Source: Candidatus Blautia stercoravium
GTDB taxonomy: Bacteria > Bacillota > Clostridia > Lachnospirales > Lachnospiraceae
NCBI GenBank assembly: GCA_019114495.1
Contig: DXFK01000038.1
Location: 367 to 64,366, forward strand
Direction of reading: 5' to 3'
Length of the DNA: 64,000 nt
Shown: piece by piece, positions 27,777 through 48,388 of the stretch
Position numbering within the stretch: the first letter of the stretch is position 1
Layout of the letters: each line of letters opens with the position of its first letter
Translations under genes and position numbers: made by a program
Notes under the pieces: generated by a model
What the model was told of the DNA's origin: nothing
What the model saw: only the letters and a program-made list of their open reading frames with translations
Databases searched by the model: none

Positions 27777-29204
27777 TCAGGAATTAAAAATCAGTGTTTT
27801 TGTTACCACCGGCACTACATGCCCGTCCGCAACAGGCTCGCCGATATCAATATAGTCACCGCTTTGTGCATGGATTCCATCAATACAAATCACATCTTTT
27901 TTTCTCTCCATCAGGACGTTGAGTGCGTTTCCCAGAACCTTTGCAATGTCATTTTCGATAATCAGAATCAGAGGATACGGCCCTTTTATCACCTGCTCTG
28001 CGCCCTCCATCAAGAGCTCTGCCAGTTCCTGAATCTGCCCGAAACTGGTATGGTATTTTCCGGAAAATGCAATGGCAAGCTGTTCCAGTTCTCCTTCTGC
28101 TTCGTAAAGGGACAACCCCTTTTTCACTGCTTCTTTAAACAGAGACGGCGTCTGCTCGTCCTCCTGGGAAATTTTCAGTACCGGAATATTTTTAATAGGC
28201 AGTTTTTCTCTGGCATAGCTGATAGTGCTGCCGCTGACATCAGTAGTATGGGTTCCTGCCCCCACTACAGTAGCACGTATGGTTTCCGCTGCAGGATATA
28301 TTTTGATTTTCTCAAAGGCACTGCAGTTTTTCACTGCCCTTGCCAGGAGAATTCCCACGTCCCCATAGCGGAACACCTCCTCTTCTTCATGAAGCATACA
28401 ATCTGCCACACCTCCGGAAAAGGTTACGGCCTGAATCACCGGCTGGCGAGCCAGCGGCTTTCCGTCATTGGTGTAAAGGCCTGCATGAAATCCGTCGGGT
28501 TCTTCTATGTACAGAGCCATGGCAAGCTGCTGGGCCATGTATTCGCAAACCCGATACAGTGTTTTTTCGCAAGCATTGTCGCCTACTTGAATCTGAATTC
28601 CATGGATTTCTGCCAGCTTCTGGATACTGGGGAAAATATAGGAAATCTTTCCGTTTTCCACCTTGATAAGCCGTCCGCCAATGTCCAGACAACAGGTTCC
28701 CTTCAGTATGCCTTTATGGAAAAACGCAATGTTGCTGGTGCCGCCTCCAATGTCAATATTGGCTACAACCTCCCGCTTCTCTTCAGAAATCCGGTCGCTT
28801 CCTGCGCCTTTCGCTGAAAGTACGGATTCCAAATCCGGGCCTGCCGTTGCCACTACAAAATCCCCCGCCATATCGCTGAGGGTTTCCAGTACACGGTTGG
28901 CATTCTGCTTTCTGGCCGTTTCTCCTGTGATAATCACAGCTCCTGTCTGTAAATTCTCCGGCTTCATACCTGCTTTTTCATACTCTTTCCGGATAATCTC
29001 CTTTACCTTTGCCGTATCAATCTCCGTCTGGGATTTCAGAGGAGTAAAGGAAATGCCGCTTCGGTAAAAGACTTCCTTGTTTACAATGCTGATTCTGGGT
29101 ACTGTATAATTGCTTGCCAGGTTTTCTATGGTCAGCCTGCTGAATATCAACTGGGTAGTAGATGTCCCAATGTCAATTCCCACGCTTAGTATTGTTTCCT
29201 GCAA
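27777..29204 (-). CDS. eutA: Ethanolamine ammonia-lyase reactivase EutA
   Basis: SVGIDIGTSTTQ, GAVIITGETARK, ATAGPDLES, DIGGGTSN, IRATVVGAG, VVTKTL. Confidence 0.96.
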   Translation of the reverse strand: MQETILSVGIDIGTSTTQLIFSRLTIENLASNYTVPRISIVNKEVFYRSGISFTPLKSQTEIDTAKVKEIIRKEYEKAGMKPENLQTGAVIITGETARKQNANRVLETLSDMAGDFVVATAGPDLESVLSAKGAGSDRISEEKREVVANIDIGGGTSNIAFFHKGILKGTCCLDIGGRLIKVENGKISYIFPSIQKLAEIHGIQIQVGDNACEKTLYRVCEYMAQQLAMALYIEEPDGFHAGLYTNDGKPLARQPVIQAVTFSGGVADCMLHEEEEVFRYGDVGILLARAVKNCSAFEKIKIYPAAETIRATVVGAGTHTTDVSGSTISYAREKLPIKNIPVLKISQEDEQTPSLFKEAVKKGLSLYEAEGELEQLAIAFSGKYHTSFGQIQELAELLMEGAEQVIKGPYPLILIIENDIAKVLGNALNVLMERKKDVICIDGIHAQSGDYIDIGEPVADGHVVPVVTKTLIFNS

Positions 29205-29226
29205 AGACTATCCCTCCCTTTTGGAC

Positions 29227-31209
29227 TCATTTGGAAATACTGATAAAGTCTGCTGTTTCGTTGATAAAGTCAAAGTTTACCTCGGTTCCCTTTTCGTTGG
29301 AACGGATTTTCAGGCTGCCATGCAGCTTGTCCTGCACCATGGTACGGACAATGTTCAGCCCCAGGCTGCCAGCCCGTATTTTCCCGGTATCAAAGCCAAT
29401 GCCGTCATCCTTCACGGTAAGTCTGGAATAAACCTTTCCTTTTTCAATATGGACAGATACATTCCCCGATTCCCTGCCGCAAAACGCATATTTCATACAA
29501 TTCTGCAGCAATTCGTTGACAGACAGAGCCACGGAAGTAGCTATCTCAGAATCCACGGTCATATCTTCTCCCGTAATTTCCAGATTCAGCTTTAAATCCG
29601 ACTTCAAAAAAGGCTGTACCGCATTGCGTCTGACATTCTCCAGAACTTCCATAAGACTGACACAGACTTCTCCGCTCTGGGAAAGAAGCTGATGTGTGGC
29701 TGAAATGGATAAAATCCGGCTGATACTTTCGTTTAACACCCGCCGGGTTTCCTCATGCTCCTCTCTTCTGGCCTGAAGCCTTAAAAGCGAAGCTATGGTC
29801 TGAAGATTGTTCTTTACCCGGTGATGCAGTTCCTTCACTGCAACGGATTTCAGAACCAGATTCTTCTCCTGTTCACGATTCCAGGTAATGTCCCGGATAA
29901 TCACCGCAAATTGAATTTCCTTTTTCATCAGGGGAATCTGCCTTACCCGCAGATAATAGTTTCCACAGTGAACCTCCTTCAGCCGTTCCATACTGTCTTC
30001 GGTGCCGCTCCACTTTGTCAGACAGATATTTTTATACTTCTGCCCCAGAATGTCGCTGACATAACCCAGATTCTGAAAAAGTTCCCTTGCGTACAGGTTG
30101 CGAAAAGACACCCGCCCCTTGTAGTCCACCAACAGAAGCGCTTCATCTATGCTCTCTGTGAGCCATTCATTCTCGTTAATCATATGGTTCAGCGGTGTCT
30201 CAATGGCTTCATAACTCTTTCCTTCCTCCTGGTTCTCCTCATCCTCTGCAATGCGTTTTTCTCTGATGAGCACCCCGATCACCCGGGAATTGTACTTGAT
30301 GGGTTCCACAGACTGAACGGTGTAGTTATTTTCCTGTGTCCTGGCTTTCATGTACTTTGTGGCAACCCCCAGACGAAAAGTACGGGCCACAGCTGGTTCG
30401 TTTTCCTCTTTTGCAAGCATACCCACCACACTGCTGCGGTAAGCAGAGGGAACTTCCTCCGGCTTTGCTTCTGCCACCACAATGGCATCCTTATCCCTGC
30501 AGGGGCAGTCCACAAAAATGTCTGCTGCTTCCAGATTAGCCAGAGGCTGAAGGGTTCCAGCCATCATTTCAATTACCTGAATCTCCTCCTCTGAAAGGTC
30601 TGTGTATTCCCTGCAAAGCTGATGTATCAACTTCTGCATCCTATTCCCTCTGCGTATCAAAATAATCTCTGCAACCTTTTTCATGGAAATATTCTTTTCC
30701 CGGCTGATGTTGCGTATGTAGTCATAAGCCTGCTGTTCGGAAAGTCCGTTTTTACTCATAATGACTCCTTTTGCCTGCTCTACCAGGGTTCGGCTTTCCA
30801 GACGCCTGGTTACGCTCTGGCACTCCTTTTCCAGACGCCTCATGGTCTTATTTCTCTCTACCGCAATTTCAAGTCCCGGAAGAAAAGTCCTCTCGTCTAC
30901 GGGTTTTACAAAATAGGCGCTGACATTGGCCTCCTTTGCCTCCTGGATAAATTCCTTGTCACAGTAAGCTGTGAGAAGTACCACGGCTTCCGCCAGTTTT
31001 TCCTCCGCAATAATTTTAGAAGCGGTCAGACCGTCTAAAAGAGGCATTTTCACATCCATAATAACTAAATCCGGCTGTTCCTTTCTGCACATTTCCACCA
31101 CATCAAAGCCGTCTGCTGCCTCGCCTGCCACTGTATATCCTTCCTTTTCCAGAATTTCCTTTAAATCCATTCTGATAATCGGCTCGTCATCTGCAATGAT
31201 TACTCGCAT
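29227..31209 (-). CDS. eutVW: Fused EutV (receiver plus ANTAR) and EutW (sensor histidine kinase)
   Basis: ADDE and MDVKMP receiver; VEQAKG...AYDYIR ANTAR; Met191 at 30639 starts the EutW part with ELHHRVKNNLQ H-box and DDGIGF / GSLGL G-boxes; no stop between the two. Confidence 0.9.
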   Translation of the reverse strand: MRVIIADDEPIIRMDLKEILEKEGYTVAGEAADGFDVVEMCRKEQPDLVIMDVKMPLLDGLTASKIIAEEKLAEAVVLLTAYCDKEFIQEAKEANVSAYFVKPVDERTFLPGLEIAVERNKTMRRLEKECQSVTRRLESRTLVEQAKGVIMSKNGLSEQQAYDYIRNISREKNISMKKVAEIILIRRGNRMQKLIHQLCREYTDLSEEEIQVIEMMAGTLQPLANLEAADIFVDCPCRDKDAIVVAEAKPEEVPSAYRSSVVGMLAKEENEPAVARTFRLGVATKYMKARTQENNYTVQSVEPIKYNSRVIGVLIREKRIAEDEENQEEGKSYEAIETPLNHMINENEWLTESIDEALLLVDYKGRVSFRNLYARELFQNLGYVSDILGQKYKNICLTKWSGTEDSMERLKEVHCGNYYLRVRQIPLMKKEIQFAVIIRDITWNREQEKNLVLKSVAVKELHHRVKNNLQTIASLLRLQARREEHEETRRVLNESISRILSISATHQLLSQSGEVCVSLMEVLENVRRNAVQPFLKSDLKLNLEITGEDMTVDSEIATSVALSVNELLQNCMKYAFCGRESGNVSVHIEKGKVYSRLTVKDDGIGFDTGKIRAGSLGLNIVRTMVQDKLHGSLKIRSNEKGTEVNFDFINETADFISISK

Positions 31210-31233
31210 GTTTCCTGTCCTTCCTTGTACCCT

Positions 31234-31689
31234 TTATTCCCCGCTGTCCGAAGATAAAAATTCCAGTAATTCTTCAAATCCGGTTCCTGCATAACTGCTG
31301 GTAACAAAAGTTTGTCCTGCTCCTGCATTTCTCAAATATTTCTTTGCGTCCTCTATCTGCTTCTCCCCTGCCAGGTCACTTTTTGTCACGACTCCGATAC
31401 AGGGTTTCGCAAAGGTGCTGGAATATCCGGGGGGAAACATCGTTCCTTCCTCGTCCGCCTGCTGAACCAGAATAATCAAATCTGCGTCTGTGGCCGTAAC
31501 GGTAAGGGCGCCTCGTAAATAAGTACGCTCCAGATATTCGCCGGGTGTATCAATCATATTTCCGTTGACCACCTGAATGGTCTGGGTTTTATGGTATTTC
31601 AAATCCTCATTGTTTATGTACTGGCACAGGGTTGTCTTCCCTGCCATAGACCGGCCAATGAGAATCACCCTTTTCTGTTTCCTATCCAT
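31234..31689 (-). CDS. eutP: EutP/PduV family P-loop protein
   Basis: LIGRSMAGKTTL, KTQ, IDTPGEYLE, GVVTKSD; ATG 31689 with GGAG RBS. Confidence 0.93.
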   Translation of the reverse strand: MDRKQKRVILIGRSMAGKTTLCQYINNEDLKYHKTQTIQVVNGNMIDTPGEYLERTYLRGALTVTATDADLIILVQQADEEGTMFPPGYSSTFAKPCIGVVTKSDLAGEKQIEDAKKYLRNAGAGQTFVTSSYAGTGFEELLEFLSSDSGE

Positions 31690-31714
31690 CTTTCTCTCCT
31701 GCCTTCTCCTGCTG

Positions 31715-32062
31715 TCAGGACCTTGTAATCGGTGCAGGCGCAAATCCCATGGTATCACAGAGTACGCTCATGACATCATGCAGCGCAGCCTCCACTCCGG
31801 CTACGTCTCCGGTAATAATAAGGGAACCGTTAAAACAGTCTACAAAGCCGATTTTTACGTCTGCGGCCTTGCTTGCCACATCTGCTGCAATGATGGCGGC
31901 TTCACTGGGCGTAATGGTAAAAATCCCAATGGCACCTTCTGCGTCAATCAACCCCATTTTCCCATACAGTGTCTCTACAGGGTGAGGAATCACATGGGCC
32001 AGCGTCACCTGCTTGCCCGGGACAAATTCCTGTATAATTCTCTCTTTTTTTTCTTCATACAT
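31715..32062 (-). CDS. eutS: Circularly permuted BMC protein EutS/PduU
   Basis: [41 protein letters not shown]. Confidence 0.95.
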
Positions 32063-32078
32063 GACTGTCTGCCTCCCC

Positions 32079-33215
32079 TTAAATCAGCCGTCCCGTATAG
32101 GCTCTTAAAAATATGCCTCGAATGTCTTCCTTGGAACATGCTCTGGGATTCGTCTTTGTGCAGGCATCCTGATAAGCGGCTTCCACCATCTCGTCCAGCA
32201 CTGCGTCAAAATCCTCCCTGGAAACCCCCGCTGCTTCAATACTGTCAGGAATATGCAGCTGTTTAATATACTGCTTTGTGGTACGAACAACGCTGAAAGC
32301 GCTCTGGCGGATACTTGGCCCGTCCAGTCTCAGCACTCTGGCAATTCTGGCATAACGCGCCGCCACCGGCGTAAGCTGCTCATGACAGCCTGCGTTAAAC
32401 GCCATAACATAGGGAAGTAAAATACCATTTGCCCGTCCGTGGGGAATGTGAAAATGCGCACCCAGGGTATGGGCCATTCCATGATTCAGTCCCAGTCCTG
32501 CGTTACTGAACGCAAGTCCCGCCAGACAGGATGCATTGTGCATCTCCTGTCTTGCATGCAAATCGTCAGGATTTTTGTAGACCTTCATCAAATTGCTTCT
32601 GACAAGCTTCATCGCTTTCTCAGCCGCAGCGTCGGTAAAATCATTGGCCCCTGTAGATACAAAGGCTTCAATGGCATGTGTCAGTACGTCAATCCCTGTA
32701 TCTGCCGTAACCGCCGGCGGAACAGAGCGTACCAGTTCTGCGTCCAGAATCGCTGCGTCAGGAAGCAGTTCGTCGGATACCAGCGGATATTTCGCTGACT
32801 GCTCCGGGTCGCTGATAACCGAAAACCTGCTGACCTCAGAACCTGTGCCGCTTGTTGTAGGAATGGCTACGAAGGTTCTCTTCTTGTCCAGACCGCCCTG
32901 TACAGACAGCCAGTTCATGGCTTTCGCTGCATCAATGGGCGAACCGCCTCCCAGTGCAAATAAAACCTGTGGCTGAAATTCCAGCATTTTTCCAATGCCT
33001 TTGGTGACCGTAGCAATGTCCGGATCAGGTTTGACTTCAGAAAATATCTGATATTCAATCTTTCTTGCTTCCAACGGCTCTGTCAGATAGCTGACCTTTC
33101 CGCTTTCATGCATAAACCTGTCCGTTACGATAAACGCCCGGCTGACGCCCTGCAGAATTTCATCCAGCCCGTCTTTTCCCATGAAAATCCGGGTCTTTAA
33201 AACAAACTCTCCCAA
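32079..33215 (-). CDS. eutG: Iron-containing alcohol dehydrogenase (EutG-like)
   Basis: [41 protein letters not shown]; TTG start 33215 with AAAGGAGG RBS. Confidence 0.9.
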
Positions 33216-33237
33216 TGTAATCCTCCTTTCTGAAACG

Positions 33238-33293
33238 AAAAAAGTGCCTGGTTTTCCCTTCGCATCCAACCAATACGAAAAACCAAGACACTT
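33238..33293 (-). terminator. Leader terminator (attenuator) upstream of eutG
   Basis: AAGTGTCTTGGTTTT...AAAACCAGGCACTT followed by a T-run, between promoter and RBS. Confidence 0.75.
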
Positions 33294-33354
33294 CAACGCT
33301 CTTAGACTAATCCATTCGTACCTGCTGCGTCGCAGATACTCCTAAATTGCTGTT

Positions 33355-33383
33355 ATTGTAGCACACGGAAGCACTTCTGTCAA
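33355..33383 (-). promoter_or_regulatory. sigmaA promoter of the eut operon
   Basis: TTGACA-17 bp-TACAAT. Confidence 0.85.
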
Positions 33384-33537
33384 CTTTGTTTATTTTTTTC
33401 TTCTTTTTTTTATTTTAATGTACATTTCAACCATAGTATTTTCTCTATTTCAAGGGATTCGTTAGTCAACTTACTCTTTTTTCTGTATTTTCATTTCCTT
33501 TTCTCACAATTTTACTTTTACACTTCCCGTCCGTTCC

Positions 33538-33894
33538 TTAATTCTTCATCTTCGGACTGAAGAGAATACTTGCGACGTATCCGAAAATCAGAGCTGCTGA
33601 AATCCCCACTGCACTGGCGGTAAATCCCCCCATGAAAAGTCCCAGAAAACCATGTTCCAGCACAGCCTTCTTCACCCCTTTAAACAAAGTATTGCCAAAG
33701 CCCAGCAAAGGAACGCTGGCTCCCGCTCCTGCAAAGGAAATCAGCTTGTCGTACAGTCCCACACTTCCAAGCACTACTCCGGCACAAACCAGAAGCACCA
33801 TAATTCTTCCCGGCATCAGCTTCGTCTTTTCCAGAAGAATCTGTACCAGAGCGCAAATCAGCCCGCCTACCCAGAATGCATTTACATAATCCAT
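33538..33894 (-). CDS. spoVAE: Stage V sporulation protein AE (SpoVAEb type)
   Basis: AFWVGGLIC, GAGASVPLLGFG, AGISA-like VGISAALIFG. Confidence 0.9.
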   Translation of the reverse strand: MDYVNAFWVGGLICALVQILLEKTKLMPGRIMVLLVCAGVVLGSVGLYDKLISFAGAGASVPLLGFGNTLFKGVKKAVLEHGFLGLFMGGFTASAVGISAALIFGYVASILFSPKMKN

Positions 33895-46124: not shown

Positions 46125-46411
46125 TGCAAACAAAAAGCCCCTCCATAACCATCTTTCAAAAAATAGTTACAAAGGGCGACTGTAATCGCGGTACCACCTT
46201 TATTTATCACTCTGAAGTCCCTTAACGCAGACGACGCGTGGAAACCTACAAAACCCTTTTCTCTACTTTTTTTCTATATCAAGCCGATTCTTCAGTTCCC
46301 CAGTTCAAAAGCTACCTTCCGTCTCTTCCCTCCCAGACAATCTTTCAGCCGGTGAATTGTCCTCTCTGCCGGTTTCCAAGACGTACTCCTCTTTCTCATC
46401 ACCTTTTTCTG
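46125..46411 (-). ncRNA. T-box riboswitch (Val)
   Basis: AGTA and GCTGA boxes; specifier GAAG-GTA-GC (Val codon, 46313-46315); T-box AAGGTGGTACCGCG (46187-46200); terminator with U-tract. Confidence 0.93.
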
Positions 46412-48128: not shown

Positions 48129-48191
48129 CGTCAACTGTCTGTAAACAGTGTGAGGGATTTCAAACTTTGCACGGAAGTTATCACCTTACTA

Positions 48192-48366
48192 CTACTAAGC
48201 AGGTTTCCTGACTCATGGCTCATTGCTTTGCCGCTCCTTCTCGTACTGCTTCGTACAATGGACTTCTGCGGCATCACTCCCCAAATACAGTGACCGGATC
48301 GCTCAGGACTCACACCTGATTCCCTTTTCACCAGTGTTGTGCGGTCAACACGGTGCACTTAATAGG
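48192..48366 (-). ncRNA. Cobalamin (AdoCbl) riboswitch
   Basis: GGTG-AAAAGGGAA-TCAGGTGTGAGTCCTGA-GCGATCCGGTCACTGT...GCCATGAGTCAGGAAACCTGC; P1 CTATTAAG/CTTAGTAG. Confidence 0.9.
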
Positions 48367-48388
48367 TTTATGGAATTATACATTAACT

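Follow-up and report, generated by a model that had tools for sequence, protein, structure and literature searches.

In the eut locus analysed here, from a gut Blautia species, the antiterminator EutV and the sensor kinase EutW are encoded by a single open reading frame, and this fusion is very probably the outcome of a recent, clone-specific deletion of one base from an AAA codon rather than a selected or conserved one-polypeptide design. Sequence comparison shows the deletion itself, that it is the derived state, and that several independent assemblies carry it. We propose that the ancestor, like the rest of the genus, carried a eutV gene ending in Arg-Arg-Gly-Lys-stop, with eutW starting one base later in the +1 frame. 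Loss of one A of the AAA lysine codon would have generated GGG AAT AGG ATG, so that the TAG is missed and the ribosome continues into eutW; the predicted product is a REC-ANTAR-(Asn-Arg)-GAF-PAS-HisKA_2-HATPase protein of about 75 kDa.

The fused ORF occupies 29227..31209 on the minus strand of the window (the whole stretch of 64 000 nucleotides that was analysed) and encodes 660 amino acids plus a stop codon from an ATG start. The exact 660-residue protein (P0121) is also recorded on other public contigs. Pfam placed its domains in the order REC, ANTAR, GAF_PdtaS, HisKA_2 and HATPase_c, with Response_reg at residues 3-108 (2e-25), ANTAR at 133-184 (4e-18), GAF_PdtaS at 196-335 (5e-35), HisKA_2 at 460-531 (2e-20) and HATPase_c at 563-647 (4e-10); all five matches were far over the curated cut-offs. 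NCBIfam returned generic receiver and kinase matches only. Read from the translation, the receiver contains the acidic pair D7-D8, the phospho-acceptor D52 (IMDVKMP), T80 and K102, and the kinase contains an H-box, HHRVKNNLQ (462-470), an N-box, NELLQN (565-570), and the G-boxes DDGIGF (601-606) and GSLGLN (614-619). An earlier note on this DNA had described a receiver-ANTAR part of 190 residues that reads in frame into a kinase of 470 residues, with the phospho-Asp, H-box and G-boxes in place, and the ORF listing, Pfam and the translation bear this out.

The EutV part (30646..31209, minus strand; residues 1-188) consists of the receiver (3-108), a coiled coil that joins it to the output domain, and ANTAR (133-184). 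It aligns with Enterococcus faecalis EutV (6wsh) across residues 2-185 (E 6e-51) and is the same as the first 188 residues of a 189-residue stand-alone EutV in a conspecific strain (L021). The EutW part (29227..30639, minus strand; residues 191-660) is a predicted sensor kinase without a transmembrane segment, in which GAF_PdtaS (196-335) and a PAS-like middle region are followed by HisKA_2 with its H-box and HATPase_c with its N- and G-boxes. It is 53-96% identical to homologues of 470 amino acids, and this C-terminal half has matches to the GAF domain of PdtaS (2ykf) and to EL346 (4r3a), a HisKA_2 kinase. Each half matches its family over the full length, which shows that the ORF did not arise by chance, and the existence of the REC-ANTAR/kinase fusion as described is confirmed.

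The fused gene lies inside a complete eut microcompartment locus, with genes for Fe-ADH, BMC and EutP upstream of it and for EutA, EutB, EutC, BMC shell proteins, an aldehyde dehydrogenase, EutT and PduL downstream. A promoter-like site and the eut operon leader were located at 33216..33383 on the minus strand, and the leader folds well (z -4.3). The promoter-like site (33383-33355) reads TTGACA-17-TACAAT with TG and agrees with the consensus at 11/12 positions. The leader, presumed to be the target of EutV antitermination, forms a 5' hairpin with the hexaloop GACGCA and then a strong intrinsic terminator before the Fe-ADH gene; both structures are kept in six other Blautia species, with some one-sided stem changes. 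The leader also holds a highly conserved single-stranded stretch of 30 nt, GAATGGATTAATCTAAGAGCGTTGAAGTG. The canonical A1/G4 dual hexaloop was not convincingly found in the leader, in which one weak A..G.. hexaloop hairpin overlaps a terminator arm, and an Rfam scan of the eut region matched no family. Elsewhere in the window, an orphan cobalamin riboswitch (48181-48377, minus strand; 101 bits) has a terminator-like hairpin behind it, and no ORF is obvious there. This RNA may be EutX/Rli55-like, in which case it would titrate EutV; a search for ANTAR dual hexaloops downstream of it gave nothing convincing. A T-box leader was also located (46169-46408, minus strand; 99 bits).

The junction itself, GGG AAT AGG (Gly188-Asn189-Arg190), lies at 30640..30648 on the minus strand, where conspecific strains read GGG AAA TAG G. 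The fused frame runs ...ATA CGC AGA GGG AAT AGG ATG CAG... across it; the junction sequence of the fused allele is GGGAATAGG and the junction peptide is IILIRRGNRMQK. The base missing from the window is one A of the AAA run, of which the remaining AA stands at 30644-30645, and the ancestral TAG stop (30641-30643) is out of frame. A Shine-Dalgarno-like AGAGGG (30646..30651, minus strand) stands 6 nt before the eutW ATG, and 7 nt before it in the split allele; eutW has thus kept its own start with a ribosome-binding site (AGAGGG-N6-ATG, Met191), from which free EutW can in principle still be initiated. Both the position of this motif and the TAG in the -1 frame (GAA TAG G ATG) had been pointed out in the earlier note, and both are present in the sequence.

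Comparison with relatives identifies the event. Among 40 related genomes searched in six frames, nine carry the pair (seven congeneric, two of the same order), and in all nine eutV and eutW are two ORFs: query residues 1-190 (EutV) and about 175-660 (EutW) matched at separate places, and matches overlapping the junction ran through stop codons. The five congeners aligned at the junction at nucleotide level (5/5) read CGC AGR GGN NAA stop N ATG, with eutW in the +1 frame one base past the eutV stop, and the window is 1 nt shorter exactly there. The stop-N-ATG arrangement is conserved across Blautia species (L002-L006), the stop codon itself being TAG, TAA or TGA; given this arrangement, losing any one base close to the stop would join the two genes. 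All seven metagenome contigs that matched a pattern allowing either allele came from a 93%-identical sister species and read GGAAAATAG. The GGA-to-GGG difference from the sister species is synonymous and common to the whole species. Two origins suggested in the earlier note can be judged from these alignments. Read-through by a TGA-to-AGA substitution is not supported: the AGA (Arg187) is ancestral, every relative has it, and the original stop is the TAG two codons further on (TAA or TGA in other species). A 1-nt indel was the right kind of event, and the out-of-frame TAG offered as its sign is real, but the indel does not fall in the TTTT run where it had been placed, since GATTATTTTGATA is the same in the window and its relatives; the lost A belongs to the AAA (Lys189) before the TAG.

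The ancestral state was also found within the species. A public protein collection contains an exact match to the hypothetical split EutV (window residues 1-188 plus Lys). This match is encoded on a conspecific contig (L021, Logan assembly, SRR27029774) that shares 99.47% identity with the window over 5267 bp; a second conspecific contig (L031, ERR15315774) shares 99.50% with the window and 99.57% with L021, from which it differs by 0.43%. Both read GGGAAATAGGATG at the junction (AGA GGG AAA TAG G ATG), called as genes for 189 and 470 amino acids, and the missing A is the sole indel between the window and L021 across 5.3 kb. As two of the three conspecific lineages and every outgroup are split, the split arrangement is ancestral. 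A stand-alone EutV of about 190 residues ending just past ANTAR is encoded in L021 and L031 (189 residues in each) and in all congeners; in the window the frame stays open to the next in-frame stop at 29227. The interpretation in the earlier note is supported in part. The fused allele that it proposed as a possible one-component regulator is real DNA in several samples, but it is not an evolved or conserved architecture, since two conspecific lineages at 99.5% identity and all other species examined are split; the comparison of orthologous loci that had been suggested as a check showed a stop codon at the junction in relatives and one extra A in conspecifics.

The eutW gene is without decay: it differs from that of L021 at nine nucleotides, and 8 of these differences are synonymous. 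The sole amino-acid difference from L021 EutW is E209K (residue 399 of the fusion; 30013-30015, minus strand), which lies in the PAS-like middle region and at which Glu is also the state of the sister species. When window positions 28968-33776 were compared with the loci of L021, L031 and the sister species, all 12 clone-derived sites, taken as those where L021 and the sister species agree, changed from G/C to A/T, and there is a strong mutational bias towards such changes in the recent history of the clone.

The fused allele is found in four further public assemblies, reached through the neighbouring EutP: L025 (ENA ERZ28600560, sample label SAMN08010217), L027 (ENA ERZ28599095, SAMN08010208), L026 (Logan SRR33442678, a later run) and L028 (ENA ERZ27240397). 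BioSamples SAMN08010217 and SAMN08010208 belong to one study. In a site-by-site table the four were the same as the window save for a 10-N scaffold gap and one contig-end base, and since they are essentially identical to it we treat all five as one clone. At 99.59% identity L027 was considered as a diverged fused strain and rejected, its 10 mismatches being the N-run, so there is no evidence for the fusion in more than one lineage. The fusion is not conserved across strains, species or independent lineages and is confined to this one clone. The NCBI annotation of the window's contig lists the 470-residue EutW (P0122) only, with neither a 190-residue N-terminal protein nor the 660-residue product, which is consistent with eutV having been handled as frameshifted. 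A rival explanation of the fused allele is that the true sequence is GGG AAA TAG and that the missing A is a homopolymer miscall in sequencing or assembly. The genome is a fragmented MAG (219 contigs, 91% complete), no more than one base of a short A run is at issue, and the NCBI annotators did not call the fused product. However, four more assemblies share this deletion although they differ in pipeline and source (ENA scaffolds from two BioSamples, a Logan contig of a later run and a MEGAHIT-style k141 contig), the deletion is in perfect linkage with the SNP haplotype of the clone, a run of three bases is not error-prone at consensus level, and no other indel separates the window from its conspecific across the 5.3 kb. 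With several pipelines and at least two BioSamples in agreement, and with the deletion linked to the SNP haplotype, we regard an artefact as highly improbable.

The top matches of two database searches gave no precedent for a fused EutV-EutW. In a word-index search with residues 100-300, none of the top 120 matches was longer than 515 aa or spanned both halves; the matches were kinases of about 470 aa, covering 55% of the scored region. When all 660 residues were run against 1.84 billion representatives in an exhaustive HMMER search, none of the top 150 matches (207 bits or more) spanned both halves; these were EutW-like proteins of up to 515 aa or EutV-like proteins of about 200 aa or less. 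These top 150 would include a fused homologue with at least 33% identity in both halves; very distant fusions, or strain-level fusions inside clusters, may exist. None of the 11 most common ANTAR architectures reviewed in 2025 has a kinase (PMC12591593). Three public metagenome proteins (P0093, P0094 and P0113) join the EutW GAF_PdtaS to unrelated domains: HAMP/His_kinase, EutA and DAHP synthase. Chimeric contigs or further frameshift fusions probably account for them, and they illustrate that such oddities are present at low frequency in assemblies.

EutV is normally a free monomer; phosphorylation by EutW makes it dimerise, after which it binds leader RNA (PMC3369931). On the sequence, the clone probably makes the 75-kDa fusion and free EutW, and no free EutV. 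If the fusion is translated, there would be no free 21-kDa EutV and all EutV would take the 75-kDa form, because ribosomes on eutV would now run into eutW. Programmed frameshifting as a means of regaining free EutV was considered and set aside, as no slippery site appears to be suitably placed for restoring an intact ANTAR end. Chemically, the kinase part could still sense ethanolamine and pass the phosphate on to Asp52, with ANTAR tethered to the kinase N-terminus through a very short, possibly helical link. An AlphaFold model of the fusion, from an alignment too shallow to model the REC half (mean pLDDT 61; residues 1-139 under 50), has one helix from 176 to 202 across the junction (pLDDT 59-80), a hint that the junction is helical and hence, if true, a rigid link. 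Antitermination may work normally, may be impaired, or may have become constitutive because the parts are forced together or dimerise; we would sooner expect it to be altered or lost, with an essentially normal outcome the lesser but still appreciable prospect. A second eutV was not found in the genome, where the sole other ANTAR gene adjoins a glutamine synthetase gene. This second ANTAR protein, of about 190-214 aa (L024; G000 contig C148:15068-15208), is encoded between the glutamine synthetase gene, upstream, and an aminotransferase gene, and is probably a nitrogen-metabolism antiterminator unrelated to eut. As a compensating eutV it was ruled out, since it adjoins glutamine synthetase and is unlinked to eut.

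The fused allele is at least tolerated, as the clone occurs in samples with accession numbers far apart, and it could be advantageous. One explanation would be a selected innovation, a single-polypeptide ethanolamine-responsive antiterminator with cis phosphotransfer and 1:1 stoichiometry, to which the clone would owe its spread. No catalytic motif is damaged, purifying selection still acts on eutW in the comparison with L021, and the clone is present in at least four datasets. Sensor kinases are usually dimeric. ANTAR proteins too act as dimers (PMC3369931), so tethering is not obviously incompatible with their function. Yet this is one clone with essentially no internal diversity, so its persistence says little on selection, and no fused homologue is among the listed top matches of either database search. 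The linker contributes just two new residues, and a low-confidence AlphaFold model predicts that it turns the last helix of ANTAR and the first of the kinase into one, an arrangement that could mis-orient the RNA-binding dimer. We consider selection for the fusion unlikely, and find it equally doubtful that the clone is a circulating gut commensal in which a covalently fused REC-ANTAR-GAF-PAS-HK still gives ethanolamine-responsive antitermination. If it were, one mutation would have converted a two-component system to a single polypeptide, with the unfused ancestor 0.5% away.

A regulatory knock-out, neutral or beneficial, is easier to entertain, although we do not favour it: EutV would be disabled, the eut operon terminated, and the loss of ethanolamine catabolism tolerated or favoured in the gut. 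In E. faecalis, mutants from which eutVW or eutV has been deleted show no eut expression, and in the mouse gut they outcompete the wild type (PMC5941071). Since eutVW loss improves gut colonisation in that species, a disabling mutation need not be costly, and the spread of one in a commensal would fit the E. faecalis result (PMC5941071). The lack of a second eutV in the genome points the same way. Against it, all downstream eut genes are intact ORFs, though the event may be too recent for decay, and nothing directly shows that ANTAR is inactivated by a C-terminal extension. The published MBP-EutV fusion was set aside as evidence on C-terminal extensions, being N-terminal (PMC8934654).

The reading we prefer, a recent loss of one A in one clone, has practical consequences. 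The fused architecture is new in form, yet it is a one-base, one-clone event, and the 660-residue ORF should be annotated as the product of a frameshift that joined eutV to eutW in one clone and not as a new class of regulator. The clone and its conspecifics form an isogenic-like pair differing by one A at the junction, which could be used to ask how far ANTAR tolerates tethering to a kinase. The same pair suits the question of whether forced proximity makes antitermination constitutive.

Among known systems, EutV/EutW of E. faecalis (6WSH/6WW6; Ramesh et al. 2012, PMC3369931; Walshe et al. 2022, PMC8934654) has the same domains in the same order across two genes, and residues 2-185 here align to residues 6-189 of the 192 of its EutV. 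The setting is also alike, a eut microcompartment operon near eutP, eutA, eutB and eutC, preceded by a leader that contains a terminator. The difference is that one base has been lost here and one reading frame results; EutV normally ends 3-5 residues past ANTAR, and the canonical A1/G4 dual hexaloop is not clearly recognisable here. In Mycobacterium tuberculosis, PdtaS/PdtaR (Rv3220c/Rv1626) pairs a homologous REC-ANTAR regulator (1s8n, E 1e-46) with a soluble GAF-PAS-HisKA_2 kinase (2ykf GAF domain, E 3e-10). The two genes are not known to be linked in mycobacteria. PdtaS and PdtaR are separate proteins with another regulon, and act by translational control and not by eut antitermination (PMC12591593). 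The order REC-ANTAR-sensor-kinase is absent from the 11 common ANTAR architectures (PMC12591593), and here it is a clone-level accident. Hybrid histidine kinases differ from the fusion described here in that their REC follows the kinase core and that they lack an output domain. One-component ANTAR regulators (NasR NIT-ANTAR, GAF-ANTAR and PAS-ANTAR) have sensor and output on one polypeptide, as the fused EutV-EutW does, and unite ANTAR with GAF or PAS sensing modules (PMC12591593), but they differ from it in having no kinase or phosphotransfer step.
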